A stretch of 32,321 bases of DNA, from contig CAYHZS010000002.1 of the NCBI GenBank assembly GCA_964361185.1, positions 1-32,321 of the forward strand. Direction: 5' to 3'. Position numbers and translations under genes: made by a program. Positions 5,502 to 21,261 of this stretch are shown piece by piece. Position 1 is the stretch's first letter. Each line of letters begins with the position of its first letter. Source of the DNA: an uncultured Candidatus Saccharibacteria bacterium. Its GTDB lineage: Bacteria > Patescibacteriota > Minisyncoccia > Phycocordibacterales > VMEP01. The notes under the pieces were generated by a model. The model was given only the letters and a program-made list of their open reading frames with translations. It did no database searches and had not been told where the DNA came from.

Positions 5502-6140
5502 ATGAAAGGAGCTGTTATTTGGGGAACAGTAGTATTAGTACTAATAGGGACAGTTTTTGGCGTGGCTTGGCTTGCTAAAGCGCCCTCTTCCGGCACGGCT
5601 TTGACAATTCCGGAAATTTCCACCGCTGATCAAACCCGCGGTCCCAAAGATGCCAGAGTGGTCTTGGTTGAATACAGCGATTTCCAGTGTCCGGCTTGCG
5701 GAGCTTTTTTCCCCCGCCTGGAAGACCTAAATAAAGAGCTTGAAGGAAAAATCCTATTTATTTACAGAAATTTTCCGTTGCCCCAGCACAAAAACGCCGA
5801 ACTTGCCGCTTATGCCGCTGAAGCGGCCGGCAGGCAAGGAAAATTTTGGGAGATGCACTCCGTTCTCTTTGAAAAACAGAGCGAATGGTCGGAGCTCGCT
5901 GATGCCAAAGAGACATTCTACAAATACGCGGAATCAATCGGTTTGGATACGGGTTCTTTTAAAGCCGAGATGAATTCCGGAGAAGTCAAAGCCAAAATTT
6001 CGACAGATCGCGAGGGTGGCAGGCGCGCCTCGGTCAATTCAACCCCGACATTTTATTTGAATGGAAAGAAAATGGAAGGATATAATTCATATGATGATTT
6101 CGCAAAACAAGTCAGAGATGCCGTACAAAACAATCCCTAA
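5502..6140 (+). CDS. DsbA-like thiol:disulfide oxidoreductase (membrane-anchored thioredoxin fold)
   Basis: N-terminal TM helix, a CPAC active site within YSDFQCPACGAF, and a TPTFYLNG cis-Pro region. Confidence 0.85.
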   Translation: MKGAVIWGTVVLVLIGTVFGVAWLAKAPSSGTALTIPEISTADQTRGPKDARVVLVEYSDFQCPACGAFFPRLEDLNKELEGKILFIYRNFPLPQHKNAELAAYAAEAAGRQGKFWEMHSVLFEKQSEWSELADAKETFYKYAESIGLDTGSFKAEMNSGEVKAKISTDREGGRRASVNSTPTFYLNGKKMEGYNSYDDFAKQVRDAVQNNP

Positions 6141-6585
6141 TGCATTTGCCTGGGCAATTTTGGCCGTTGGCTTTTTGGGTTTTGTCGACGCGTTATATCT
6201 TACCGCCAAAAGGTTCCTTGGTTCGCCTCTCCAGTGTTATTTTTTTGGGGGATGCGACGCGGTTAACTCAAGTCCATACTCGAACCTCTTAGGAATACCC
6301 CTTTCTCTCTACGGCTCTGTGTTTTATCTCTTGGTTGTTCTGACCGCCGTGTATTATCTGCAAAGCAAAAATCCGGTAGCGGTGAAGGCTCTTATGGCAC
6401 TTACAACACTCGGCTTTCTTTTTGCCTGTTATACCTTCTCACTCCAGGCTTTTGTGATAAAAGCGTATTGTTTCTATTGCGTGCTTTCTATGGTGACCTC
6501 TACGGCAAATTTCGTTCTTATGTTTATCGCCTGGAAAAAATATTTCTCCAAAGAATCTAACACTCTGTCCGAAGAAAAAATTTAG
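6118..6585 (+). CDS. Vitamin K epoxide reductase (VKOR) family protein
   Basis: Four TM helices, a loop Cys pair (LQCYFFGGCD) and a CFYC active-site motif. The start is chosen at MPYKTIP. It overlaps the DsbA-like gene's end by 23 nt. Confidence 0.8.
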   Translation: MPYKTIPNAFAWAILAVGFLGFVDALYLTAKRFLGSPLQCYFFGGCDAVNSSPYSNLLGIPLSLYGSVFYLLVVLTAVYYLQSKNPVAVKALMALTTLGFLFACYTFSLQAFVIKAYCFYCVLSMVTSTANFVLMFIAWKKYFSKESNTLSEEKI

Positions 6586-6602
6586 AGGGTTATATAAAAA
6601 AC

Positions 6603-6634
6603 AATGGGGCGGTGTCGATTAAGACCGCCCCATT
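6603..6634 (-). terminator. Intrinsic terminator for the minus-strand orphan (also closes the VKOR gene)
   Basis: The 11-bp stem AATGGGGCGGT pairs with ACCGCCCCATT. The T-run follows on the minus strand (A-run 6595-6601 on plus). Confidence 0.7.
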
Positions 6635-6643
6635 CGCGCCCTC

Positions 6644-6979
6644 TCATATTTCGGCCTCTTTTTTCACGGCCTTGAGCTTTGGTCCTGCCAGGAAATCCGC
6701 GTGTTCGCGTATGGGCGCCAGTACCGTGCCGATTACCGCGCGCGCGGGAAAGAGGGGAATTACTACTTCTACTCCTTCCGCGAACCTGTCCCAAAGTGAA
6801 CACCATTCCCTGAGGACTGAAGCAATCACTTTGAGCGGTGGTTCGGGTGCCCGCAATCCGTTTTGGACGGTTTCAGAAAACGCTTCATGGGCTACTTTTG
6901 CCGTTGCGTCCACCCATGCTTCTGTGCCAATGTCTTCCATTTTCCACTTTCTATGGGCCATATCCAGAGCGCTTTTCAT
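6644..6979 (-). CDS. Hypothetical protein, 111 aa, GC-richer orphan
   Basis: Balanced amino-acid composition, AAGGA located 9 nt upstream of the ATG, and its own terminator. The overlapping plus-strand ORF 6612-7016 has antisense-like Ala/Ser/Arg-rich composition. Confidence 0.55.
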   Translation of the reverse strand: MKSALDMAHRKWKMEDIGTEAWVDATAKVAHEAFSETVQNGLRAPEPPLKVIASVLREWCSLWDRFAEGVEVVIPLFPARAVIGTVLAPIREHADFLAGPKLKAVKKEAEI

Positions 6980-7120
6980 GATGAGGATTCCTTATCAAGG
7001 GATACATCTACAGTAATTGTGAAGCAATAGCTTTTTCTATGCAACCCCAGAAGTAAAGGTTACCGCAGTACTAGAGAATACTCAGTACACGGCAAGCTCA
7101 CTATGGGGCAGGCGCACCTA

Positions 7121-7129
7121 TGTTATAAT
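7121..7129 (+). promoter_or_regulatory. Extended -10 promoter element TGtTATAAT upstream of the SIMPL gene
   Basis: Exact TGnTATAAT match located 30 nt before the ATG at 7159. Confidence 0.5.
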
Positions 7130-7158
7130 TACTATGTTAATAAATAATCCATAAAAAT

Positions 7159-7992
7159 ATGTTTGATATATTCAATTTTAAAGAGAAGTGGATGGGTGAA
7201 ATAGATTTGAGGAAACGCAGACTGCTTTCTTTGACCACGGTCACGGCGGTTTTAATAGTAGTTTATCTTGCCTCGCTCACGTTAAGTGAAATAAAGCAAT
7301 ACGGCTACATCGGCGCCGGTGTTCAGCCGACAAATGTAATAAACGTAAGTGGTGAAGGAGAAGTTTTTGCTGTGCCGGACATCGCGGAGATAAGTTTTTC
7401 GGCGCAAGTGGAAGGTAAATCGGTTACGGACGCACAGAAAAAAGTAACCGACATAATGAATCCGGCGATAGAATTCCTGAAGAAGTCTGGGGTAGCCGAG
7501 AAAGACATAAAAACAAGCGGTTACTACGCAAATCCGCAATATGATTACGTAAGAGACGGGGCGGAGCCAATGATTTATCCACCCGTGCCCGGCAAAAGAG
7601 TTCTTACCGGCTACAACGTAACGCATACAATCACGGTAAAAATCCGCGATACCGATAAAGTGGGAGCAATAATTGACGGGCTGGGAAAACTTAAAGTTAC
7701 CGATTTGTCCGGACCTAATTTTTCAATTGATGATGACAACGCGCTCAAGGCTGAAGCCAGAAAGAAAGCGATTGATGACGCTAAGGCCAAAGCAAAAAAA
7801 TTGGCGGATGATTTGGACGTTCGGTTAGTGAGGATTGTTAGCTTTTCCGAAGGCGGAAACTATCCGGTTTATTACGCCAAAAGTATGGCGGTAGGAATGG
7901 GTGGCGGTCCGGAAAGTGCGCCTGTTCCAGATATGCCGAAAGGAGAAAATAAAATCACTTCAAGTGTGACTGTTACTTACGAAATAAGATAG
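7159..7992 (+). CDS. SIMPL domain (DUF541, BP26-like) envelope protein
   Basis: N-terminal TM anchor. LTGYNVTHTITVKIRD...GAIIDGL...ARKKAIDDAKAKAKKLA is typical of SIMPL/DUF541. The start could instead be the ATG at 7192. Confidence 0.8.
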   Translation: MFDIFNFKEKWMGEIDLRKRRLLSLTTVTAVLIVVYLASLTLSEIKQYGYIGAGVQPTNVINVSGEGEVFAVPDIAEISFSAQVEGKSVTDAQKKVTDIMNPAIEFLKKSGVAEKDIKTSGYYANPQYDYVRDGAEPMIYPPVPGKRVLTGYNVTHTITVKIRDTDKVGAIIDGLGKLKVTDLSGPNFSIDDDNALKAEARKKAIDDAKAKAKKLADDLDVRLVRIVSFSEGGNYPVYYAKSMAVGMGGGPESAPVPDMPKGENKITSSVTVTYEIR

Positions 7993-9480: not shown

Positions 9481-9510
9481 AAAACCCGCCAATTCGGCGG
9501 GTTTTGTTTT
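9481..9510 (+). terminator. Intrinsic terminator after rplK
   Basis: AAAACCCGCC, loop AATTC, then GGCGGGTTTTGTTTT. Confidence 0.8.
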
Positions 9511-9590
9511 TAAGGGCGGGTTGTGATAGGTATATGTGTAGAAACGTAAGGTTTTGCGATTTGGCACTTAAGTCAAACGGAGGTGGTTTA

Positions 9591-10151
9591 ATGAAAAAAG
9601 TGACGTCTCTTCGCGAACTCAGGATGCTTATGAAGGATTTTGGCGTAGATACAAGCACTTGGGGTAGAGATAAAGCCAAAACTCTGACCCATCTTTTTTG
9701 CGAAGTCAGGGATGGTGAATGCGCTCTTGCCGTAACCGATGACGGCAGACTGGTCAGAGAGGTTTCCGTTCTCTGTCTGGATATTGAGTACAAGGGAATG
9801 GTTTTGAGAGAGGACTTCCAGCTTTTCTACGAGGGCAAGCGCCGACGCGAAAGGGAGCTTGATGCGTCAACGGGCGAAAAGTTTAAGCCTGGAGAAACAC
9901 CGGAACAAGCCCTTAGCCGCTTGGTCAACGAGGAGTTCCCGATCCTGTCCCTTCAGCCCAAAGAAGATTTCAAGTTTACGGGGGATAAGTTCAGGGAGTC
10001 AGACAGCGTAAGTTACCCCGGACTCCATACACGCTACCGACTGTGCTTTTTCGCGGTTGAGCTTACAGTGGAACTGCCGGCGATAACTGTCCAGGAGCCT
10101 GACAAGCTTGTGGCATACAAGTGGGTTGCCTCACCCACGCGGTCAACGTAA
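9591..10151 (+). CDS. Hypothetical protein, 186 aa, GC-richer orphan with a degenerate Nudix-box-like segment
   Basis: Strong SD GGAGGTG 5 nt before the ATG at 9591. GEKFKPGETPEQALSRLVNEEFPI resembles Gx5Ex7REUxEExGU, but with one extra residue and RL in place of RE. Confidence 0.55.
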   Translation: MKKVTSLRELRMLMKDFGVDTSTWGRDKAKTLTHLFCEVRDGECALAVTDDGRLVREVSVLCLDIEYKGMVLREDFQLFYEGKRRRERELDASTGEKFKPGETPEQALSRLVNEEFPILSLQPKEDFKFTGDKFRESDSVSYPGLHTRYRLCFFAVELTVELPAITVQEPDKLVAYKWVASPTRST

Positions 10152-10208: not shown

Positions 10209-10865
10209 TTAAAGATACTTTTCGAGTTCAAGCAGGGAGGAGAGCTGCGGGCAATCAACGCCATCGTTTTTTTCTTTGATATTCACTAAAATACTTTTTA
10301 CTCCTATATTTTTTGGAACTTCATAGTCACTCATAACCCTGTCGCCGATATAAAGGAAATTTTCCGGAGGCAAATCATAAAAAGACAGCCATATTTTATA
10401 AGCTGAGCCGTCTGATTTTGAAGCGTCATCTTTAGTGATAATGTGGCTGAAGATTTCTTTGCCGATGTCGAGCTTCTTAAGTTTTCTATGGGTTATTGAA
10501 CCGTTAGATCCGGTGATTACATCCAAATTTTTATATTTTTCTTTAAGTTTTTTTAAAAGATTTATAGTCTCCGGGTTTGGAACGAGGAATGAGGCTATGT
10601 CGGCCCTCTCGAGCGCTTCCTGGACGATTTCTTTTCCGTTTGGTATCTCCAGAGTCGCAAGCGCCTTGCTCCCTCCCATACCCGCTCCATCTTTGTAAAG
10701 ATCGGCGAAAAGCGCCCTCGCCTCTCCCAAGGAGCACTTTTTGCTCGCGGCAATTTTTTCATAAATATATTTTTGAATTGCCTCGTCAATTTCCGGCGAT
10801 TTCGGATACAGAGTCTGGTCAAGATCAAAGCCAATGACTTTAGTTTTATTTTTGTAATCAATCAT
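10209..10865 (-). CDS. HAD-superfamily hydrolase, resembles pyrimidine 5'-nucleotidase (SDT1-like) subfamily
   Basis: FDLDQTLY motif I, ITGSN motif II region and YIGDRVMSD motif IV. Its ATG overlaps the stop of the upstream 803-aa gene (ATGA). Confidence 0.75.
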   Translation of the reverse strand: MIDYKNKTKVIGFDLDQTLYPKSPEIDEAIQKYIYEKIAASKKCSLGEARALFADLYKDGAGMGGSKALATLEIPNGKEIVQEALERADIASFLVPNPETINLLKKLKEKYKNLDVITGSNGSITHRKLKKLDIGKEIFSHIITKDDASKSDGSAYKIWLSFYDLPPENFLYIGDRVMSDYEVPKNIGVKSILVNIKEKNDGVDCPQLSSLLELEKYL

Positions 10866-13273
10866 TGTGTAAAAGCGACGTAAAACAAAGAAAGGTTCCC
10901 AAGGGGATATCCAAGTGTTTCACTGAATTTTGTCGATATATAGTTTAGTAATTCAAGGTCTTCTTTTTGTTTGCTAATGGAATGGTTCATAAAGACTGCC
11001 GTCGCGTGTACTTTACCGCCCATTACGTTCGCCTGGAAGAACGCCAAATAGTCTCCCTGAGGGTCCATTTTTCCGGCTTTGTACTCCGTTAAAATAGGAT
11101 TATTATGCATTACTCCTTTTTCTTTAAGATAGAAAATAGCTTTTTCAATTGTGTTTACACCCTCCATATTTTCCAGCCGGTCGAGAATAAAATTATTTGG
11201 TCGCGAAGCTATTTTCTGAAGAGGGACAAAGCTATAAGCAACACCGGTTTCATTCGCCAAAGGAAACTTGGTGTTTTCGGCTAGCTGGTATGGTCCGCTT
11301 TTTGAATCAATTTCATCCATCGGTTTAGATGGTTCGCTCATCAGTTTTTTAGACCGCTGTTCTTCAGTCAGAAGGAGTATGTTTGCTCTACTTGATAACA
11401 TATACATATCTCCGGGTTTCGCGCCGAGTTTCTCTCTAACGGTGCATATATAAGCGTCATGAAGACCAAATATATTTTCGGGGTACGCATTCACGGTATT
11501 ATGGGCGCGAGCTATGTGAAATGAGTGCAGATGTCCGTTTTGCAGAAAAAAAATATCATGAGTAAGGCACGGGTCGTGCGTGTACTTTGTTTTGCCGGTG
11601 TCCGGGTCGGTATAGCTTCTCATGTCTTCTACCGGGTCAAAGCGCTGTATTATAGCGGCTCTAGTCGGATTATTTTTTAGAACAAGGGCGGTTTTAGGGA
11701 GCTGATCAAAGCCAAAAAACACCCTCGTGCGTTCCCCGTAGCTATAGTCGCCATCATGGTCAAAACGCAGAAGCTGGGCTTTGTAAGCCTCACGTATTTC
11801 TTCAGTACTTCTCTCTCCCTGTTTGTATATTGCCGAAAGCGAGGCCAGCGCTTTTGCGGCATTGCGGTAAATCGCGAGCATTACCGCGGAACGAGCCGAC
11901 CCTTTTTGCTTATCGCCGTGTTCTTCCGTAAGTCCTTGAGTATATATTTTCATAAGGACTTGCTTATGTACGTCTAAAAAATTATCCCCGTCGGCTATGA
12001 GTAGGGGAAGACTCTCCGTATTAATCTTGAAAATGTTTGGGAAGTCTTGAATAAAAGCGTAATTAAACGAAGCGGCTATGGTGGCCCGGCCGATTTGCCC
12101 ACCAATGTCAATTCGGTGCAGTATGTCCATTTCGTAGTTCTCAAAGCGGTTATTTTCGGACAGCCATTCAAAAAGCCCGCCGATTTTTAGAGATCGCAGT
12201 TCGAAAACTTCCTCGCAGACATCAAAAGCGAGGCACATTACCGCTACTTGGCTCTCCCTTACGTTAATTTTGTAATAATATTTTTTATCGGTTATGAGAG
12301 AAACTTTTGATTCAAGCATTATTTCTTTTTGCCCGGTAAGGTTCTTTGATTTCACGAAAGAAGGGAATTTTATTTCATTTTTTATCTCCGCGCTTACGCG
12401 GGCAATTTCCGCTCCCAGGAAAAACTGGTTTAAGTTGCCTATTTCTTTTTTCCTGTCGCCTAAAAATTTCATAAGGGAATATTCAAGCAAAAATTCGTCC
12501 GGACTTTTTATAAAAAAAGTGTCTTCACCTACCCTGATATCCAGGCGGATTAATCCTTTTTTGTTTTGCACTATAAAATCAACTTCAGGGACAAATTCTT
12601 TCGGAGGTATGTCTATTTTGGGTGGTTGCAGATGCTGAAATTCTTTCGGGTCAAGCTCCACAACTCCGCGTTCTTTAGGCGCGGATGCTCCAAGGAGAGA
12701 CACAAGCTTGTTCAATGAGTCGTAATATATTTTCCCTGTTTCGTTCGCTTCTTTCAAAAATTCATATACGTCTGATGGCAGTTTTGGACGCGCCCATTCC
12801 AGATAGTCAATGACTATCTTCTTGCCGTAATCGTTCTTGTACATGAACATCGGTAGGACTGTTATATTGTCGCGGAATGAATCCACTATTTTTTCGGAGA
12901 GGCTCGGGTAGTGTGACGAGGCCGCCTTGCCGTTTATTATCTGGTGGTCGCGGTCTTCGATGTTGATTCCATACTGAAGCGCCAAGAGAAGATTCGTGCT
13001 TGGTGAAAAGGTGAGCGACTCCTCGGAGAAAAGTATGAGATATGAGAGCGTGGGGTGGGACAGGGAATTTAGTATCATTCTTTCGGCCCCATCCCGGCTT
13101 ACGATAAGAGAACCCAAGACCGAAACAAAACGCCGTTCCTTTCCCTCAAGTTCATTCAGCACCTGTCCCGGGGCGGTGGTGTTGGTGCAGATGCCTATAA
13201 AACCGTCTTTACCCTCAGGTGGAGTTAAGAGAAGCGCATCCACTATCGGGAATTGGGAAATTTTTACAGCCAT
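10862..13273 (-). CDS. 803-aa fusion of an MtrA-like domain, two DUF4346-like modules, a thymidylate-synthase-fold domain and a degenerate TS-like C-terminal segment
   Basis: Residues ~1-165 (nt 12779-13273) align by eye to MtrA: G.L....DGAE..I.NSLSHP.LSYLILFSEES...L..GI......I.G. Residues ~228-412 (nt 12038-12592) hold two modules ending FLGAEIARVSAEI and RIDIGGQIGRATIAASFNYAFIQD. Residues ~425-640 (nt 11354-12001) carry YGER...FDQLPKTALVLKNNPTRAAIIQRFDP...DPCLTHDIFFLQNGHLHSFHIARAHN...YPENI, with the Cys codon at 11567-11569. Confidence 0.7.
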   Translation of the reverse strand: MAVKISQFPIVDALLLTPPEGKDGFIGICTNTTAPGQVLNELEGKERRFVSVLGSLIVSRDGAERMILNSLSHPTLSYLILFSEESLTFSPSTNLLLALQYGINIEDRDHQIINGKAASSHYPSLSEKIVDSFRDNITVLPMFMYKNDYGKKIVIDYLEWARPKLPSDVYEFLKEANETGKIYYDSLNKLVSLLGASAPKERGVVELDPKEFQHLQPPKIDIPPKEFVPEVDFIVQNKKGLIRLDIRVGEDTFFIKSPDEFLLEYSLMKFLGDRKKEIGNLNQFFLGAEIARVSAEIKNEIKFPSFVKSKNLTGQKEIMLESKVSLITDKKYYYKINVRESQVAVMCLAFDVCEEVFELRSLKIGGLFEWLSENNRFENYEMDILHRIDIGGQIGRATIAASFNYAFIQDFPNIFKINTESLPLLIADGDNFLDVHKQVLMKIYTQGLTEEHGDKQKGSARSAVMLAIYRNAAKALASLSAIYKQGERSTEEIREAYKAQLLRFDHDGDYSYGERTRVFFGFDQLPKTALVLKNNPTRAAIIQRFDPVEDMRSYTDPDTGKTKYTHDPCLTHDIFFLQNGHLHSFHIARAHNTVNAYPENIFGLHDAYICTVREKLGAKPGDMYMLSSRANILLLTEEQRSKKLMSEPSKPMDEIDSKSGPYQLAENTKFPLANETGVAYSFVPLQKIASRPNNFILDRLENMEGVNTIEKAIFYLKEKGVMHNNPILTEYKAGKMDPQGDYLAFFQANVMGGKVHATAVFMNHSISKQKEDLELLNYISTKFSETLGYPLGNLSLFYVAFTQ

Positions 13274-14148
13274 TTTTTACTAGACCATTGATTCGGCAAA
13301 AGCTCATCCAGAGAGTATTGCTTGAATTCCATTGTGTCTTTGGCGAAACAGTACAATTTAATATTCAAATCGTATTTGGCGCTTATTTCGGCCAGAAATT
13401 GTCGGCAGCATCCGCAAATCTCACACGGGGTGTCGGTAAATTTTGTTGACACTAAACCGAGCGCGGTAATTTTTGTTTTGTCGTTCATAAGGGCAAGGAT
13501 TGGCGCCGCCATTTCACTATGGATGCTTCCTCTTTTTTCAAAACTGGAATATTGCCCGGTATAGTATATTGTCCCGTCCTCCGTCAGCACGGCCGTGCTG
13601 TAGGCACTCGCGTTGTCGTAGGTATGGAAGCACTTGCTAAGCCCCTCATCAGCGTATTTCTTAAGCTGGTCTTTCACAGAAAGACTTTTGTCAAAGGTGG
13701 CTTTATTTTCGGAAATAACCGCTCCCGTTACTTTTGAGAGTATCTTTTGAGGCGGACGATAAAAACTGATTGTTTCGGAGATCTTTGGGGCCGAGAATAT
13801 CTCGCGCCCGTCCATGTCTATTATTCTATACCTGATTTCGCTACCGGTCCGCACGCAGAAATCAATCATGGTTTTTACCGTAAACGGATTTACCATAAAG
13901 CCGTCGCTTTTTTCCACTAGAGTTACCATTTCCTCCACTTCGTAATCGCTATGAGATACCGCCAAAAGAAGAGCCGATTGTTCCGAAGAAATGTTCAGTA
14001 GATTCGTGTCGGAGTCGATATTCGCCCCGCGGTATTTCCGCCCGCTTTTTGAATAGCAGACGGAAGAGGTCCGGTTCGCCCCCCCGATGACTTTTTTAAC
14101 GACAGCGAGAGGAAGCCCGTCTTTCAAATAAGATAACTCGTCAGCCAT
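13264..14148 (-). CDS. Tandem cytidine/deoxycytidylate-deaminase-fold protein (N-terminal half degenerate, C-terminal half with Zn motifs)
   Basis: The C-terminal half has SIHSEMAA...TPCEICGCCRQFLAE...LLPNQW, which matches the (H/C)AE...PCxxC pattern with HSE. The N-terminal half has SSEQSALLLAV and no PCxxC. Confidence 0.7.
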   Translation of the reverse strand: MADELSYLKDGLPLAVVKKVIGGANRTSSVCYSKSGRKYRGANIDSDTNLLNISSEQSALLLAVSHSDYEVEEMVTLVEKSDGFMVNPFTVKTMIDFCVRTGSEIRYRIIDMDGREIFSAPKISETISFYRPPQKILSKVTGAVISENKATFDKSLSVKDQLKKYADEGLSKCFHTYDNASAYSTAVLTEDGTIYYTGQYSSFEKRGSIHSEMAAPILALMNDKTKITALGLVSTKFTDTPCEICGCCRQFLAEISAKYDLNIKLYCFAKDTMEFKQYSLDELLPNQWSSKKWL

Positions 14149-14150
14149 AT

Positions 14151-15044
14151 TTAAATGTTGCTCCTTAACTTGCTGACACTCAACTGGGCGGCTTCCCAGT
14201 CATAATGTAGAGTTTTTTTAATGAAGTCGTTTAACAGATGAATTTTGTCTCTTTCGAGTCGCGGGTACATTTTTTCCGATTTCTTGCTGGTGAGGCGGAC
14301 AGTAGGAACAAATGAAACAGGAAAAGCGTAATACGGCAGAAGCGGGCGCCTTGGTGACTCTGGTTCCACCAAAATGGCTGTGATTGGCTTACCGAGTTTT
14401 TCTATGGCGTAGTCGATTCGGTGAGCACCGTCACAGATGATGTAAAAATCTTGCTTGCCGTTGTATCTTAGCCCGTAATTTATAATCGGAGCGTTCGAGT
14501 TGAAAACATCCAGATAATCTAGTTTGCTCACTTCGTCGATGTAGAATGAAGTTAGGAATCTCTTTGAAATGTTATGCAAATTATTGCGCGCGTCGGTTGT
14601 ATATGTATTTTCAAATCGTTTGCTGATTTTATCAAGGTCAAGATATCCATTTTTAAGTTCGTAGGTATGTTTTTCGATAATGGGTGGCAGTATGTGGAAA
14701 TCCCCGCGTCCCTCCCAATTGTACTGAAGCCCGTTTTTTAAGTTGTTTATACGCATTTTATGCGCGCGCAGAAATTTATCGACGGTATCAAAAACCTCCA
14801 TTTGGTTTTCGTAAATCGTCGGCTGGGGAGTAAAAAGATTGTGCTTTTTATCATCAACGGCTATTTTTGGAGACTGACCTATTTTTTGGGGTGGGTGTAT
14901 CGTAACCAGTTTAAATTTTGCCCGCTGGTATGGTTTTAGGGACATTCCTTTCTTATCAAAAAGTCCGCGAAAAACCACTTTCCGCAACATTGATGTCAGT
15001 TGGGCAAACGGGATTATCCCCTTCAAAACTAGCTTTTCTTTCAT
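14151..15044 (-). CDS. ParB/sulfiredoxin-fold-like protein (hypothetical, 297 aa)
   Basis: FYIICDGAHRIDYAIEKLGKPITAILVE matches the DGxHR core of the ParB/Srx fold. An upstream ILPPII segment is also present. There is no P-loop. Confidence 0.45.
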   Translation of the reverse strand: MKEKLVLKGIIPFAQLTSMLRKVVFRGLFDKKGMSLKPYQRAKFKLVTIHPPQKIGQSPKIAVDDKKHNLFTPQPTIYENQMEVFDTVDKFLRAHKMRINNLKNGLQYNWEGRGDFHILPPIIEKHTYELKNGYLDLDKISKRFENTYTTDARNNLHNISKRFLTSFYIDEVSKLDYLDVFNSNAPIINYGLRYNGKQDFYIICDGAHRIDYAIEKLGKPITAILVEPESPRRPLLPYYAFPVSFVPTVRLTSKKSEKMYPRLERDKIHLLNDFIKKTLHYDWEAAQLSVSKLRSNI

Positions 15045-17763: not shown

Positions 17764-20700
17764 ATGGACAAAAAAGATTCCAACGAAAAAAGAAAATCAG
17801 AAGTGGCGCTTACTGAAGAGCGTATTTTGGCCGGCTGGAAAGAAAAAAAGATTTTTGAGAAAACTCTTGAAAAGACCAAGAACGGTAAGCTGTTTGTTTT
17901 TTACGATGGCCCGCCTTTTGCGACAGGAGAGCCTCACTACGGGCATATTTTGGCAGGCACGATAAAAGATGCCATTCCGCGCTACCGCACAATGACGGGG
18001 CGGTATGTGAGGCGCCAGTGGGGTTGGGACTGTCATGGTCTTCCTGTTGAAAATATCATAGAGCAGGAACTCAAACTTTCTCACAAAAAAGACATAGAAG
18101 AATATGGCATAGGCAATTTCAATGAAGCGGCGCGGAGTGCCGTGCTTAGGTTTGATTCATTTTGGAAAAAGGCGGTACCGAGACTTGGGCGTTTCGTGGA
18201 CATGGATTTGTCGTATAAAACTATGGATGCCTCTTATTCTGAATCAATCTGGTGGGCGTTTAAAACTCTTTACGACAAAGGGCTCATATATGAAGGACAT
18301 AAAGTAATGTATGTCTGTCCCAGATGCGAGACACCAGTCTCCAATTTTGAGGTGGCGCAGGGGTATAAAGATACAACCGATATTTCGGTGACAGTGGAGT
18401 TTAAGTTGGTTGATAGTCCCGGCACATCTTTTCTGGCGTGGACTACTACGCCGTGGACGTTACCGGGCAATGTGGCTCTTGCTGTGGGTAAAGATATCGA
18501 CTATGTGACGATTGAGAAGAAAGACGAAGGTGTCGGAAAGAAAATTCGGTTCATTCTTGCGAAAAGTCGCCTTGAAACAATTTTTGCGGGGCAAGAATAT
18601 GTCATTGTGGCCGAGCACAAGGGGATGGATTTGGTTGGCATCAAGTATGTGCCACCCTTCGATTACTACTATAAAGATGAGTTATTAAATAACCGCGAAA
18701 ATGGTTGGAAGGTCTACGCGGCAGATTTCGTTTCAGCAGATGAGGGCACAGGCATAGCTCACGAAGCCCCAGCGTTTGGCGAGGATGACATGAATTTAGG
18801 CAACGAAGTTAAGTTGCCATTTGTCCAACACATAGAGATGGATGGACGATTTAAACCGGAGGTCAAAGATTTTGCCGGCATGTATGTAAAACAGAAAGAC
18901 GATACGCAGTCGGCGGATGTGGAAATCATAAAAAATCTGGCCAAGAGAAATCTGCTTTTCGCCAAAGAAAAAATAATCCATCCGTACCCAATGTGCTGGA
19001 GATGCGACACGCCTCTTCTCAATTACGCCACTCCGTCTTGGTTCGTTAAGGTAACGAAATTCCGCGACAAGGTCGTTTCAGAAAATAAAAAAGTCTGCTG
19101 GGTGCCGGAGCATGTGGGAGAAGGAAGATTCGGCAAATGGCTCGAAGGCGCGCGCGATTGGGCTATTTCACGTTCGCGCTATTGGGGCGCGCCTTTGCCC
19201 GTTTGGAAATGCCTGGAATGTGAAAAGGTTGAAGCGATAGGGAGCATAGAAGAGTTAAAGAAAAAAATTCCTAAAAGTGGCAATCGTTATTTTGTTATGC
19301 GCCACGGCCAGGCGGAAAGTAATGTTTCCGGGACCAATGATTCCAATGGTAATCCCGATAATCATCTTACGGAGAGCGGGAAGGAAAGTATAAAACTTGT
19401 CGCTAGTAAACTCTCTAAAGAAGGAATAACCCGTATCATAACGTCACCCTTCCCCCGCGCCAAAGAAAGCGCGGACATTATAGCGAATGAGCTAGGATTA
19501 TCGGAAGAGAAGATTGTATCAGATAGGCGCTTGATTGAATTCAATCATGGCTCCAAAGGTCAAGGTAAAACAATAATGAATAACACCTTAGAACCTTTTA
19601 ATGAAAATGATTTATATGTTAGGCATGGCGATGGTGAAAATCACGCAGAAGTCAGGACAAGGGTAGTTTCAGCTATATTCGACGCGGACAAAACATATAA
19701 GAATGAAACTATTCTCATAGTCACGCACGGTTCTCCCATGTGGATGCTTATTGCCGGAGCTCTAGGCATGAGCGACAAGGAAACACTGGAATATCAGAAA
19801 AAGCGTGCTAAAAATAATGGGGATTATTTCATCTCAAACGGCCAGGTTGAGGAGGTTGATTTTACACAGTTTCCTCACAATAAGGAGTATGTTATTGATT
19901 TACACCGCCCGTACATAGACGAGGTGATTTATGATTGCTCTTGTGGAGGAACGATGAAAAGAATTCTGGACGTTTTTGACTGCTGGTTTGAATCGGGGTC
20001 AATGCCTTACGCGCAGTTCCATTATCCATTTGAGAACAAGGAGGAATTCAAGAAAAATTTTCCGGCTGATTTTATTGCTGAAGGTCTCGACCAAACGCGC
20101 GGTTGGTTTTACAGCCTGATTATTTTGGGCGTCGGGCTTTTTGGAGAAACACCATACAGAAATGTCATCGTGAACGGACTGGTTTTGGGAAGTGACGGGC
20201 AGAAAATGTCCAAGCGTCTCAAGAATTATCCGGAAGTTATGGATGTGGTGGATAAATACGGCGCTGATTCTTTGCGATATTACCTCTTATCTTCTCCAAT
20301 AATGCGCGGGGAAGACTTGGTATTTTTGGAAAAAGGAATTGATGAAATATACAAGAAAAATATTTCCCGCCTCAATAATGTTTACTCTTTTTACGAATTA
20401 TATAAGGGAGACGAAAAGGGAAGCGACACTTCGGAAAATATTCTGGATAAATGGATTATCGCGCGCCTGAATGAACTTAAAAATGTAATGACCGAGGGGA
20501 TGGAAAAATACGAGCTTGATAAAGTGGCGAGGCCAGTCGCGGATTTTATTGACGATCTTTCCACATGGTATATCAGGCGCTCGCGCGAAAGATTTAAATC
20601 AGACAATGAAAATGATAAAAAAATGGCGCTTGAGACAACCCATTTTGTGCTTGAGGAATTTTCCAAGCTCATTGCCCCGCTTATGCCGTTTATAGCGGAT

Positions 20701-21261
20701 GATTTGTATTTGAAAGTTACACGTGGGGAAAAAGAAGAAAGCGTGCATTTGGAATCTTGGCCCAGTAACAACGGACAACGAACAACCAACAACCAACAAG
20801 TAATACAAGAAATGCAAAAGGTGCGTCAAATTGTTTCGCTTGGACTTGAGGCGAGATCGAAGGCGGGGATAAAAGTGAGGCAGCCGCTTCAAAACTTAAA
20901 ACTCAAAACTCAAAACTTAGAACCTGAATATATTGAATTAATTAAAGATGAAGTAAATGTGAAGGGAGTTACTTTTGATGAAGAGATTGAAAATGAAGTT
21001 GAATTGGATACAAATATTACACCAGAACTAAAAGAAGAAGGCGATGTTCGCGATTTAGTACGCGCTATTCAGGATTTCAGAAAAAAGGAAGGTCTTACTC
21101 CGAGCGACAAGGTTGCGCTTTTGGTTTCCTGCGACGAAAAAACAGCTTCTTTGATAAAAAAGAATGAAGATGAGTTAAAGCACTCAACTCTTTTAAGTCA
21201 TATATCCATTTCAAACTCCGACGGAGAAACTTCTTTCCAGGTGCTTAATCCGGGGTCGTAA
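17764..21261 (+). CDS. ileS: Isoleucine--tRNA ligase (type-2-like) carrying an inserted histidine-phosphatase domain
   Basis: PHYGH (HIGH), WAISRSRYWGAPLPVW, DQTRGWFYS and KMSKRL are IleRS signatures. At 1165 aa it is longer than expected because of the insert at 19285-19860. Confidence 0.95.
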   Translation: MDKKDSNEKRKSEVALTEERILAGWKEKKIFEKTLEKTKNGKLFVFYDGPPFATGEPHYGHILAGTIKDAIPRYRTMTGRYVRRQWGWDCHGLPVENIIEQELKLSHKKDIEEYGIGNFNEAARSAVLRFDSFWKKAVPRLGRFVDMDLSYKTMDASYSESIWWAFKTLYDKGLIYEGHKVMYVCPRCETPVSNFEVAQGYKDTTDISVTVEFKLVDSPGTSFLAWTTTPWTLPGNVALAVGKDIDYVTIEKKDEGVGKKIRFILAKSRLETIFAGQEYVIVAEHKGMDLVGIKYVPPFDYYYKDELLNNRENGWKVYAADFVSADEGTGIAHEAPAFGEDDMNLGNEVKLPFVQHIEMDGRFKPEVKDFAGMYVKQKDDTQSADVEIIKNLAKRNLLFAKEKIIHPYPMCWRCDTPLLNYATPSWFVKVTKFRDKVVSENKKVCWVPEHVGEGRFGKWLEGARDWAISRSRYWGAPLPVWKCLECEKVEAIGSIEELKKKIPKSGNRYFVMRHGQAESNVSGTNDSNGNPDNHLTESGKESIKLVASKLSKEGITRIITSPFPRAKESADIIANELGLSEEKIVSDRRLIEFNHGSKGQGKTIMNNTLEPFNENDLYVRHGDGENHAEVRTRVVSAIFDADKTYKNETILIVTHGSPMWMLIAGALGMSDKETLEYQKKRAKNNGDYFISNGQVEEVDFTQFPHNKEYVIDLHRPYIDEVIYDCSCGGTMKRILDVFDCWFESGSMPYAQFHYPFENKEEFKKNFPADFIAEGLDQTRGWFYSLIILGVGLFGETPYRNVIVNGLVLGSDGQKMSKRLKNYPEVMDVVDKYGADSLRYYLLSSPIMRGEDLVFLEKGIDEIYKKNISRLNNVYSFYELYKGDEKGSDTSENILDKWIIARLNELKNVMTEGMEKYELDKVARPVADFIDDLSTWYIRRSRERFKSDNENDKKMALETTHFVLEEFSKLIAPLMPFIADDLYLKVTRGEKEESVHLESWPSNNGQRTTNNQQVIQEMQKVRQIVSLGLEARSKAGIKVRQPLQNLKLKTQNLEPEYIELIKDEVNVKGVTFDEEIENEVELDTNITPELKEEGDVRDLVRAIQDFRKKEGLTPSDKVALLVSCDEKTASLIKKNEDELKHSTLLSHISISNSDGETSFQVLNPGS
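19285..19860 (+). other. Histidine-phosphatase (PGAM/CobC-like) domain embedded in ileS
   Basis: RYFVMRHGQAESN (RHG motif), SPFPRAKESA, LIEFNHG..GQGKT, GENHAEVRTRV and ILIVTHGSPMWML (second His motif). The segment lies between KCLECE and DCSCGG. Confidence 0.8.
20765..20799 (-). repeat. Heptad array E inside ileS: GTAACAA CGGACAA CGAACAA CCAACAA CCAACAA
   Basis: Five 7-mers on the C/A strand (complement TTGTTGG TTGTTGG TTGTTCG TTGTCCG TTGTTAC). They encode SNNGQRTTNNQQ. Confidence 0.75.
20891..20925 (+). repeat. Heptad array F inside ileS: AAAACTT AAAACTC AAAACTC AAAACTT AGAACCT
   Basis: Five 7-mers that encode QNLKLKTQNLEP. Confidence 0.75.

Follow-up and report, generated by a model that had tools for sequence, protein, structure and literature searches.

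In methanogens, MtrA is the corrinoid subunit of the methyl-H4MPT:CoM methyltransferase, and MtrA domains are binders of corrinoids, not of pterins. In thymidylate synthase (TS) of Escherichia coli, ThyA, the residues W80, W83 and D169 contact folate, and H207 and Y209 contact the 3'-OH of the deoxyribose. The TS fold is also found in base replacement by phages: in the toolkit of the Bacillus phage SPO1, a deaminase that feeds dUMP is combined with a hydroxymethylase resembling TS, with a nucleotidase for dTMP and dUMP, and with a dedicated kinase. Here we describe a protein that joins MtrA-like and TS-fold domains in one chain. It is encoded in a 32,321-nt stretch of DNA from an uncultured Candidatus Saccharibacteria bacterium (the window). 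We give about an even chance to the reading that it is a single-active-site, pseudo-dimeric TS of the methanogen type and the core of a module salvaging cytosine nucleotides to thymine nucleotides. If this is true, ultra-small bacteria and archaea make the thymine nucleotide of their DNA by an unusual route.

Architecture and distribution of the five-module protein

The fusion ORF is real and highly conserved: over 120 homologues are full-length and 52-86% identical to it. From the N- to the C-terminus the protein consists of an MtrA-like domain, a weakly DUF4346-like module (M1), a DUF4346 module (M2), a catalytic TS-fold domain and a truncated TS-fold domain lacking the Cys (Table 1). The ORF shares 10 nt at its 5' end with the deaminase-like gene upstream and 4 nt (ATGA) at its 3' end with the HAD gene downstream. 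The complete architecture was found in Patescibacteria (CPR) and also in DPANN archaea (42-47% identity); the survey of domain architectures suggested in an earlier note on this DNA has thus recovered the five-module chain in both groups. The operon, the CPR/DPANN distribution and a wider class of MtrA-TS fusions go beyond that note. A functional description of the five-module fusion was not found in the literature.

Table 1. Features of the locus, with positions in the window
Feature	Position	Strand	Basis
NUDIX hydrolase, convergent with the operon	9504..10151	plus	Often adjacent: about 17/52 loci, all CPR
HAD phosphatase, pyrimidine-5'-nucleotidase-like, 218 aa	10209..10865	minus	HAD_2 E=2.6e-13; TIGR01993 E=2e-15; 46/52 loci
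Fusion ORF, 803 aa	10862..13273	minus	Stop codon 10862-10864
Degenerate TS-fold domain, residues ~676-803; no Cys, no R166 equivalent	10865..11248	minus	Isolated model; PDB matches
Invariant H723-N724-N725 loop, at the partner-donated R126-R127 position of ThyA	11099..11107	minus	Register inferred; invariance from alignments
Catalytic TS-fold domain, residues ~424-645	11339..12004	minus	TIGR03283; Foldseek vs PDB; hhalign vs E. coli ThyA
R589 to N600 segment (RAHNTVNAYPEN), equivalent to E. coli ThyA R166 to N177	11474..11509	minus	hhalign; conservation
Codon of nucleophile Cys569; D567-P568-C569-L570 invariant	11567..11569	minus	Alignments; hhalign
M2, DUF4346 (PF14251), residues ~326-411, ending in invariant Q409-D410	12041..12298	minus	hhalign; PF14251 in P0127 and P0153
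M1, degenerate DUF4346-like module (weak evidence), residues ~215-300	12374..12631	minus	hhalign; model topology
MtrA-like domain, residues ~8-165	12779..13252	minus	NF002126; PDB MtrA profile matches; Pfam MtrA
Codon of Phe89, at the MtrA corrinoid-ligand His position	13007..13009	minus	Alignments; invariant in CPR and DPANN
Tandem cytidine-deaminase-like protein, 294 aa	13264..14148	minus	TIGR01354 E=1.4e-11; PDB CDA matches; 47/52 loci
ParB-CE (ParB/Srx-type) protein, 297 aa	14151..15044	minus	PF24392 E=3.5e-4; 47/52 loci

The catalytic and the degenerate TS-fold domains

The profile of methanogen-type TS, TIGR03283, matched residues 432-627 of the window protein (E=1.6e-15, 57.1 bits). This is far under the family cutoff (57 against 174.55 bits) and counts against assigning thymidylate synthesis to the domain. 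PF00303 left the window protein unmatched and matched 3 of 35 family members (best E=6e-4). Foldseek comparison of the structure model, in which the loop 505-521 is of low confidence, with the PDB gave more than 400 matches at E≤0.001 (top E=2.6e-9), the best 50 of which were all TS or TS-fold enzymes. When the domain was aligned to E. coli ThyA by hhalign (E=4.7e-4), C569 was paired with C146, R589 with R166, and P598-E599-N600 with P175-F176-N177. R589 occupies the position of the phosphate-binding Arg, N600 that of the uracil-selecting Asn and Y512 that of Tyr94. In 29 orthologues from CPR and DPANN, C569, R589, N600, Y512-G513-x-R515-T516, D523-Q524 and many other residues were invariant. 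The earlier note had proposed a TS fold with a nucleophilic Cys, whose codon it located correctly, and a uracil-selecting Asn in a PENI motif replacing PFNI, and had made the proposal depend on conservation of the aligned Cys and Arg in orthologues; TIGR03283, Foldseek and hhalign agree on the fold, N600 corresponds to N177, and Cys, Arg and Asn do not vary among the 29 bacterial and archaeal sequences. Its reading of a TS-fold enzyme acting on a uracil nucleotide appears supported by this Cys and Asn and by a conserved cytidine-deaminase-like partner, which would supply a uracil substrate.

The C-terminal segment, whose likeness to TS was undetected by sequence profiles alone, was modelled in isolation (pLDDT 88.7), and its best 50 matches in the PDB all had the TS fold (probability 1.00, about 105 columns, 2.5-3 Å). 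This confirmed the fold of the Cys-less second TS half that had been proposed from the sequence. At the ThyA R126-R127 position, the catalytic domain is itself variable (TRAA / x-R-A-T) and the H-N-N loop of the C-terminal half is invariant, as would be expected if there is a single live site. The conservation pattern of the C-terminal half agrees with a TS dimer being mimicked within one chain, in which the two TS cores would pack against each other. In the highly derived, ThyA-class thymidylate synthase that we favour, Cys569 would attack C6 of a uracil (deoxy)nucleotide, whose uracil would be read by Asn600 and whose phosphate would be held by Arg589 together with K457 or R461. The Cys-less half would stand in for the second subunit, donating the H723-N724-N725 loop to the sole working site. 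The one-carbon unit would be transferred to C5 from a methylene-tetrahydropterin, in the simplest case methylene-tetrahydrofolate made by the often adjacent SHMT, and the product would be dTMP.

By hhalign, the ThyA residues W80, W83, D169, H207 and Y209 align to L501, R503/F504, N592, N631 and L633, and these replacements are invariant. Since the folate- and 3'-OH-contacting residues and the partner Arg pair are all replaced, the substrate, cofactor or product may differ from those of ThyA. The enzyme could act on a ribonucleotide, a free (deoxy)nucleoside or another uracil compound, with the ParB-CE protein phosphorylating the product. The change of H207/Y209 to N631/L633, a new invariant R629, the exchange of the 5'-phosphate-binding Arg-Arg pair for H-N-N, and the nucleoside-specific cytidine-deaminase type of the partner deaminase (PCxxCRQ motif) would agree with such a substrate. 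However, R589 (R166 of ThyA) and K457/R461 (about R21) are still there for a phosphate, a dUMP-making dUTPase adjoins the operon in about 22 of the 52 loci, and we know of no TS-fold enzyme acting on unphosphorylated nucleosides, which leaves a substrate other than dUMP quite unlikely.

The MtrA-like and DUF4346-type modules

The N-terminal domain matched NCBIfam NF002126 over residues 48-145 (E=2e-7, 30.7 bits, cutoff 161) and reached 14.7 bits against Pfam MtrA (PF04208; cutoff 25), a profile with matches in 31 of the 35 family members (E down to 5.9e-7). When the family profile was compared with the PDB, its MtrA-like part matched only the MtrA chains 8q3v and 5laa (E about 6e-4). Judged from its sequence, the domain is homologous to MtrA, with scores under the family thresholds. 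In the alignment with crystallised MtrA, the invariant F89 (SLTF) falls on the His that ligates the corrinoid; the axial His of MtrA is absent from this family. Both the likeness of the N-terminus to MtrA and the replacement of the ligand His by SLTF had been noticed earlier and stand.

A DUF4346 profile was derived from 17 independent proteins, and M2 aligned with 84 of its 88 columns, which spans the whole domain (hhalign probability 93%, E=2.8e-7). The C-terminal motif of M2, F407-I-Q409-D410, is invariant, the DUF4346 counterpart being [YF]-x-Q-D. In addition, PF14251 matched M2 of the family members P0127 (E=1e-5; 26.7 bits, cutoff 29.6) and P0153 (E=2e-3). The match of M1 to the same profile was weak (E=3.5e-4, probability 37%, 63 columns in register) and lacked the Q-D motif; control slices gave E=0.25-0.56. 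In the structure model M1 has the same beta3-alpha2 topology, and direct alignment of M1 with M2 gave E=0.18. Of the two DUF4346-like modules claimed in the earlier note, M2 is therefore upheld, and M1 is at most weakly DUF4346-like; of its overall reading, the TS fold, Cys, Asn, C-terminal TS half and MtrA likeness all remain, but an inbuilt module for an unusual pterin-like one-carbon carrier is not supported in that form. DUF4346 domains co-occur with pterin-binding and MtrA domains, and to our knowledge no ligand of DUF4346 has been described.

If the protein is a thymidylate synthase, its MtrA-like and two DUF4346-type modules would derive from an MtrA-DUF4346 unit that has repeatedly been fused to archaeal TS, with loss of the corrinoid His, and the unit would probably take part in cofactor handling or assembly. 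Alternatively, the N-terminal unit could itself be catalytic, making the protein a non-canonical TS of a reductive or a methyl-transferring kind. In one version, a corrinoid or another redox cofactor would provide reducing equivalents like the flavin of ThyX, so that the pterin is not oxidised and DHFR is unneeded; in another, a methyl-corrinoid would carry the methyl group and be attacked directly by the Cys-activated C5. MtrA-TS fusions arose repeatedly in archaea and have kept the corrinoid His in P0146, P0154, P0174 and P0166. Sister MtrA-like proteins are fused to Fe-S/ferredoxin domains or MtrH (P0144, P0176, P0143), which are typical redox or methyl-transfer contexts of corrinoids. In the MtrA-like domain, the loops E85 to L96 (around F89) and R60 to N69 do not vary between bacterial and archaeal members, an indication that a ligand site has been conserved. 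The loss of the ThyA folate-binding residues also speaks for this alternative, as does the acknowledgement that the cofactor of archaeal ThyA is unresolved (PMC9012536). On the other hand, the five-module family has an invariant Phe in place of the axial His, and it conserves no Fe-S motif: C347 and C353 are missing from P0127, from P0129 and from the DPANN members. Across the 52 loci the operon contains neither mtr genes (the mtrEDCBAFGH context) nor an MtrH-like partner. We also know of no corrinoid synthesis in CPR and DPANN organisms, and we consider a catalytic N-terminal unit unlikely.

The MtrA-like domain, both DUF4346-type modules and the dead TS half could also be decayed, ligand-free relics whose only part is to keep the fold stable or to gather the three partner proteins into a complex. 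This would be consistent with the lost corrinoid His, the barely recognisable M1, the C-terminal domain devoid of catalytic residues, and fusions with partner genes that suggest physical association. Yet the polar loop residues R60, D61, E64, R65, N69, H73, E85, S92 and N94 of the MtrA-like domain, as well as H386, Q409 and D410 of M2, are invariant in two domains of life, which exceeds what a scaffold usually needs and makes a purely architectural role very unlikely.

The operon and its relation to known systems

The order of the operon, ParB-CE-like gene, tandem cytidine-deaminase-like gene, fusion gene and HAD phosphatase gene, is near-universal: the genes were present in 46-47 of 52 loci, those of DPANN included, and nearly all absences coincide with contig ends. 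The partners retain catalytic motifs. In the deaminase-like protein the N-terminal half is degenerate, and the C-terminal half carries invariant catalytic residues (H210-x-E212 and C245-x-x-C248). D205-G206-x-H208-R209 of the ParB-CE protein is invariant, its orthologues score above the PF24392 cutoff, and its gene also adjoins the distant cousin P0153. The DxD motif of the HAD protein is intact. Moreover, Rosetta-stone fusions join the CDD-like protein to the enzyme in P0127 and the enzyme to the HAD protein in P0129. SHMT is a neighbour in about 15 of the 52 loci, which points to an ordinary donor of the methylene-tetrahydrofolate type.

These partners suggest a salvage route in which the HAD phosphatase would convert dCMP to deoxycytidine, the CDD-like deaminase would convert this to deoxyuridine, the ParB/Srx-like protein, as a putative kinase, would produce dUMP, and the five-module enzyme would form dTMP. 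The TIGR03283 and TS-fold match around Cys569, the invariant residues, the C-terminal TS fold, the operon, the gene fusions and the neighbours all argue for thymidylate synthesis, as does P0155, a related MtrA-TS-DUF4346 fusion with a TS domain that exceeds the curated cutoff of TIGR03283 (190.8 against 174.55 bits). The presence of a phosphatase and a putative kinase in one operon is odd for simple dTMP synthesis and counts against this reading.

The operon could instead make a modified pyrimidine, the TS-fold domain being a dUMP hydroxymethylase that yields 5-hydroxymethyl-dUMP as in SPO1. With a deaminase, a TS-like enzyme, an HAD protein resembling pyrimidine nucleotidases and a possible kinase of the ParB/Srx type, the four inferred activities mirror phage base replacement in composition, and they form a strictly conserved set. 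A dUMP hydroxymethylase of the SPO1 gp29 type would be compatible with the fold and with the Asn aligned to N177; ThyA residues for cofactor positioning and hydride transfer (W80, H147, D169 and the C-terminal tail) are missing. Moreover, the best structural match was the phage TS-fold base-modifying enzyme AfhB (9iqu, TMt 0.74), and MilA was among the matches too. However, W80 and H147 are missing from methanogen-type TS and from the shorter MtrA-TS fusions as well, which deprives their absence of diagnostic value, and the nearest profile is a thymidylate synthase equivalog. We are also aware of no modified bases described from these lineages. No family members were found in the viral contigs, phage genomes or defence-system models searched, and the neighbours are housekeeping genes, which favours thymidylate synthesis; the adjoining SHMT and dUTPase suit plain dTMP synthesis equally. 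We know of no sequence feature that tells a dTMP from a hydroxymethyl-dUMP product, and hydroxymethylation seems improbable to us. If it were true, operon-bearing CPR and DPANN cells would hold 5-hydroxymethyluracil or a derivative in DNA or as a metabolite. By analogy, the operon might be a cellular counterpart of the phage toolkit, with many CPR and DPANN organisms replacing or supplementing thymine with 5-hydroxymethyluracil or a derivative, which we regard as decidedly doubtful.

Among known systems, methanogen-type TS shares with the catalytic domain the fold, the size of about 200-220 aa, the best profile match, the P-C Cys, Y-G-x-R, the D-Q helix and the R166 and N177 equivalents. In the five-module family other residues stand at the D169, H207 and Y209 positions and the Arg-Arg pair is gone; methanogen-type TS is a homodimer, whereas here the domain sits in an 803-aa chain with a second, dead core. 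The archaeal MtrA-TS(-DUF4346) fusions (P0154 from a Thermoprotei MAG; P0146, P0152, P0155, P0166 and P0178) likewise have an archaeal-type TS preceded by an MtrA-like domain and frequently accompanied by DUF4346, and at the corrinoid-ligand position several have His, and P0155 and P0178 have Phe, as in the five-module family. They differ in length (460-520 aa), in placing a single DUF4346 behind the TS, in the absence of a second TS core, and in retaining D169, H207, Y209 and the R-R pair; the ParB-CE/CDD/HAD operon was not seen in the one context examined. MtrA (5laa, 8q3v) shares an alpha/beta domain over about 95-140 residues, with the framework G-x-E-[KR]-x-I-x-N and NG-x-D in common, whereas here the axial His is Phe, the Mtr operon is absent and the domain is fused to soluble modules rather than belonging to a membrane complex. 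The bifunctional DHFR-TS of protozoa and plants (PDB 3hj3, 3clb) is a precedent for a TS and a cofactor-related domain in one chain, but it has a genuine DHFR partner and a TS homodimer in place of MtrA/DUF4346 modules and a built-in dimer mate. The phage TS-fold base modifiers (AfhB dCMP hydroxylase 9iqu, T4 dCMP hydroxymethylase, MilA 5jnh) have a similarly compact TS fold and act in dedicated pathways alongside deaminases, kinases and nucleotidases, to which the partners in this operon are comparable; their identity to the five-module family, which is cellular and not viral, is 14-17%. The dCMP/CMP enzymes among them (T4 gp42, MilA) have a cytosine-selecting Asp at the N177 position, whereas the five-module family has the invariant Asn600.

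Domain composition of the fusion protein

The analysis showed that the 803-aa protein is a thymidylate synthase (TS)-fold enzyme with an intact nucleophile and a uracil-reading Asn, joined to a dead TS core, an MtrA domain without its ligand His and DUF4346 modules, and that its gene belongs to a pyrimidine operon of four genes found in both CPR bacteria (Patescibacteria) and DPANN archaea. The window comes from a cellular chromosome (GC about 44%), and besides the operon it carries genes for ArgRS, IleRS, MetRS, TatD, tRNA-His and a class II aaRS as well as a fragment of AcrB. A complete His_Phos_1 histidine-phosphatase domain is inserted within the catalytic domain of this IleRS, and L001, a distantly related Patescibacteria genome, encodes a 1195-aa orthologue that shares the insertion. 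The start of the database copy of the fusion protein (P0001, 793 aa) is called 10 codons further downstream (window 13243-13273); the ATG at 13273 is favoured because the invariant F8-P9 precedes the P0001 start.

Coordinates of the features discussed; positions refer to the window unless another contig or locus is named.
Feature	Position	Strand	Length	Remark
ParB-CE-like gene	14151-15044	-	297 aa	
CDD-like gene	13264-14148	-	294 aa	10-nt overlap with fusion ORF
Fusion ORF	10862-13273	-	803 aa	third of four tightly packed minus-strand operon genes
HAD gene	10209-10865	-	218 aa	4-nt overlap with fusion ORF
IleRS gene	17764-21261	+	1165 aa	His_Phos_1 insertion at residues 510-676
P0154 surroundings (L006/L007, Thermoprotei MAG contigs)	6001-7569			
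Reordered operon (L060, another bacterial lineage)	11436-12787	+		

The methanogen-type thymidylate synthase profile TIGR03283 matched residues 432-627 (E=1.6e-15). When the AlphaFold model of the fusion protein (pLDDT 84.6, pTM 0.76) was searched against the PDB by fold, more than 400 matches at E<=0.001 were obtained, and the 50 listed were all thymidylate synthases or TS-fold enzymes, including MilA, with the phage dCMP hydroxylase AfhB as the top match. Alignment to E. coli ThyA (EcThyA) by hhalign (E=4.7e-4) placed C569 at C146, R589 at R166, N600 at N177, Y512 at Y94 and D523-Q524 at D110-Q111; N592, N631 and L633 stood at D169, H207 and Y209, respectively. The catalytic set was invariant in the 28-29 orthologues compared, 9-10 of them from DPANN archaea, to which the statements on invariant operon residues below also refer. 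Thus, the TS fold claimed in the earlier note, with its nucleophile Cys and uracil-selecting Asn, was borne out by the profile, fold and residue matches.

Modelled alone, the C-terminal domain (pLDDT 88.7) retrieved only TS folds among its top 50 PDB matches (probability 1.00, about 105 columns at 2.5-3 A). Its coverage of the TS core begins at the D-Q helix and extends through the last strand, and both the Cys and an R166 equivalent are missing. A Pfam scan of isolated C-terminal segments gave no match, and profile-profile comparisons of the modules M1 and M2, of the TS and C-terminal domains, and of the C-terminal domain and EcThyA were not significant (E=0.02-0.18), though stretches were in register; the question of internal repeats was settled by the C-terminal fold matches together with an external DUF4346 profile. 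The Cys-less second TS half that had been suspected at the C-terminus therefore exists as a fold, which sequence methods alone miss. In ThyA, each active site takes R126-R127 from the partner subunit. This pair aligned to a variable T-R-A-A of the catalytic domain of the fusion protein (hhalign), and the H723-N724-N725 loop of the C-terminal domain was invariant. Because the dead domain keeps an invariant H-N-N-P loop at the R126-R127 position, a position that varies in the live domain, we infer from the sequences that the two TS cores would form an intramolecular pseudo-dimer with a single active site, in which the dead-domain H-N-N-P loop would point into the live site and the live-domain loop into the dead site.

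At the N-terminus, Pfam MtrA matched the window protein weakly (E=0.024) and 31 of 35 fusion-family members (best E=5.9e-7), and NCBIfam NF002126 matched residues 48-145 (E=2e-7). In a PDB sequence search the fusion-family profile found the MtrA chains 8q3v, 5laa and 5l8x as its sole matches; TS structures were not recovered in this search and were reached by fold search only. The alignments to these PDB chains, as well as a MAFFT alignment that took in 12 further MtrA-like domains, placed Phe89 in the column of the corrinoid-ligand His, and F89 was invariant across the fusion family. Both the MtrA likeness and the missing ligand His, read as SLTF in the earlier note, were thereby corroborated. 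The loops from R60 to N69 and from E85 to L96 of this domain were invariant, and such strong conservation implies a putative ligand. That the extra modules are purely architectural is very unlikely. An Fe-S or metal site formed by C29, C347 and C353 was ruled out, as C347 and C353 are not kept in P0127 and P0129 (members fused to operon partners) or in the DPANN members.

A DUF4346 profile drawn from independent MtrA-DUF4346 proteins (17 segments) matched M2 (about 326-411) over its full length (probability 93%, E=2.8e-7) and M1 (about 215-300) in register (probability 37%, E=3.5e-4), the three control slices giving E=0.25-0.56. Pfam PF14251 itself matched M2 in two divergent family members, and M1 and M2 shared a beta3-alpha2 pattern in the structure model. 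Hence, of the two DUF4346-like modules proposed earlier, M2 is well founded and M1 is a weak candidate. DUF4346 was also confirmed to follow DHPS-like pterin-binding domains, since the DUF4346 of P0155, an MtrA-TS relative, matched the C-terminus of TIGR00284.

Distribution and operon conservation

More than 120 full-length homologues of about 800 aa were found at 52-86% identity; those named were all from Patescibacteria MAGs (Paceibacterota, Kaiser-, Zambryski- and Sungbacteria). The homologues are annotated as hypothetical or as thymidylate synthase (JGI). The mean column identity in an alignment of 35 homologues was 62%. A scan of GTDB species representatives located full-length members at 52 loci, which alongside Patescibacteria included Woesearchaeota, Nanoarchaeia/Nanoarchaeota and Iainarchaeum at 42-47% identity. 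In HMM scans of six-frame ORFs at these loci, the ParB-CE-like and CDD-like genes were present at 47 and the HAD gene at 46, with nearly all missing partners falling at contig ends, and operon order and strand were unchanged in archaea. That bacteria and archaea share a nearly identical operon clearly exemplifies inter-domain transfer between two radiations of episymbionts. Adjoining genes, almost all at bacterial loci, encoded dUTPase (about 22/52), NUDIX (about 17/52) and SHMT (about 15/52). At L060 the order was fusion, HAD, HAD, a 309-aa gene, a 299-aa gene and acylphosphatase; the two HAD genes are paralogues, and a gene resembling cytidylate/adenylate kinases lies close by. In several operon MAGs labelled Saccharibacteria, Peribacteria, Gammaproteobacteria or Methanosarcinales (L010, L013, L015, L020, L021, L037, L044, L046), the operon proteins nevertheless scored like Paceibacteria-type or DPANN-type loci, and these taxon labels are probably unreliable. 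No fusion-family member was detected on viral contigs, the matches in phage genomes were ordinary TS genes only (27% identity), and PADLOC defence-system models matched none of the operon proteins.

The partners also kept their key residues: H210-x-E212 and C245-x-x-C248 of the CDD-like protein, D14-x-D16, T118, K150, D175 and D180 of HAD, and D205-G206-x-H208-R209 of the ParB-CE protein were invariant. The CDD-like partner is itself a tandem pseudo-dimer, with an N-terminal CDA fold lacking the zinc ligands (SSEQ, not C/H-A-E) and an intact C-terminal one; it equals E. coli cytidine deaminase in length (294 aa), and the order of its two halves is reversed. For the ParB-CE partner there were no PDB sequence relatives, phage relatives or NCBIfam matches, and a literature search for PF24392 (ParB-CE) returned nothing. 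In P0127 (1111 aa) the CDD-like neighbour is fused at the N-terminus and in P0129 (981 aa) the HAD neighbour at the C-terminus, both being Rosetta-stone fusions.

MtrA-like domains in other proteins

An exhaustive HMMER search with the N-terminal 424 residues against 1.84 billion representatives found the complete N-terminal arrangement confined to the fusion family; relatives outside it covered the MtrA-like stretch only. MtrA was joined to TS in P0146, P0152, P0174 and P0154 (Thermoprotei MAG), to TS and DUF4346 in P0155, P0166 and P0178, and to DUF4346 in many proteins; the TS domain of P0155 exceeds the curated TIGR03283 cutoff. Given these relatives, an MtrA-type domain, often with DUF4346, joined to an archaeal-type TS is a recurrent design. 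Around P0154 lie numerous small ORFs without annotation together with genes for a resolvase and a PD-(D/E)XK protein, a setting that resembles a provirus or mobile element more than a housekeeping region. A distant 811-aa cousin of the fusion protein, P0153, adjoins ParB-CE and HAD genes.

Other fusions combined MtrA with MtrH, MtrA with Fe-S, or ferredoxin with MtrA. In P0143, P0144 and P0176, non-methanogenesis MtrA-like domains are joined to MtrH, a CFeSP-type Fe-S motif (PF04060) or a 2x[4Fe-4S] ferredoxin, which suggests a putative family of small corrinoid/Fe-S proteins without prior description. The corrinoid-ligand position holds Phe in P0155, P0178, P0153 and the fusion family, and His in some other MtrA relatives. 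A catalytic MtrA/DUF4346 unit, acting as reductant or methyl carrier, is conceivable from the His-containing MtrA-TS fusions and Fe-S-linked MtrA paralogues; however, with Phe at the ligand position and no Fe-S motifs in the fusion protein, we consider this unlikely.

Proposed function and comparison with known systems

The fusion protein would transfer a one-carbon unit to C5 of a uracil (deoxy)nucleotide, most simply converting dUMP to dTMP with methylene-tetrahydropterin. This reading fits a deaminase partner turning C into U, a dUMP supply from dUTPase and a methylene supply from SHMT. It is known from sulfiredoxin and an archaeal serine kinase that the ParB/Srx-type fold can phosphorylate substrates. 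We infer that the operon would salvage cytosine nucleotides into thymine nucleotides: HAD would serve as nucleotidase, nucleosides would be deaminated by the CDD-like protein, and the ParB/Srx-type protein would be the putative kinase. Against a simple TS reading speak the replaced ThyA contact residues, the putative ligand implied by the conserved MtrA-like loops, and the presence of a phosphatase and a putative kinase in one operon, a combination that is a peculiar operon design. A substrate with a different sugar or phosphate requirement is quite unlikely. A hydroxymethylase or modified-base pathway, whose gene set would by analogy mirror that of phage SPO1, is improbable as well. Uracil C5 transfer within pyrimidine salvage is the preferred reading, about as likely as not. 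The observation in the earlier note is confirmed, and its interpretation, a TS-fold C5-transferase for a uracil nucleotide with a built-in domain for a pterin-like C1 carrier, is supported in part, as regards the TS fold, the intact nucleophile Cys and the Asn that reads uracil.

Much of microbial diversity belongs to CPR bacteria and DPANN archaea, which subsist on scavenged nucleotides, so a thymidylate source is central to their biology and host dependence. Once worked out, the function of the fusion protein would give roles to four widespread hypothetical protein families and a first functional context to DUF4346 and non-Mtr MtrA domains, and would test for a modified DNA base in these organisms. 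It would also bear on the cofactor choice of archaeal-type ThyA, which is itself unresolved (PMC9012536).

No description of the fusion family or of the MtrA-TS design was found in the literature on DUF4346, MtrA-TS fusions, CPR/DPANN thymidylate synthase and AfhB. The family is a variant of the TS-fold C5-transferases with an unprecedented domain architecture and a conserved, uncharacterised set of partners, and it appears to be the TS-type enzyme of CPR and DPANN. Its highly conserved design has no precedent: a single chain holds both TS dimer halves, only one of them live, along with a His-less MtrA domain and DUF4346 modules, and its gene keeps a ParB/Srx-type partner in an operon of fixed composition. 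In comparison with ThyA, the residues contacting folate, the 3'-OH and the phosphate are exchanged for other residues that are invariant in the fusion family.
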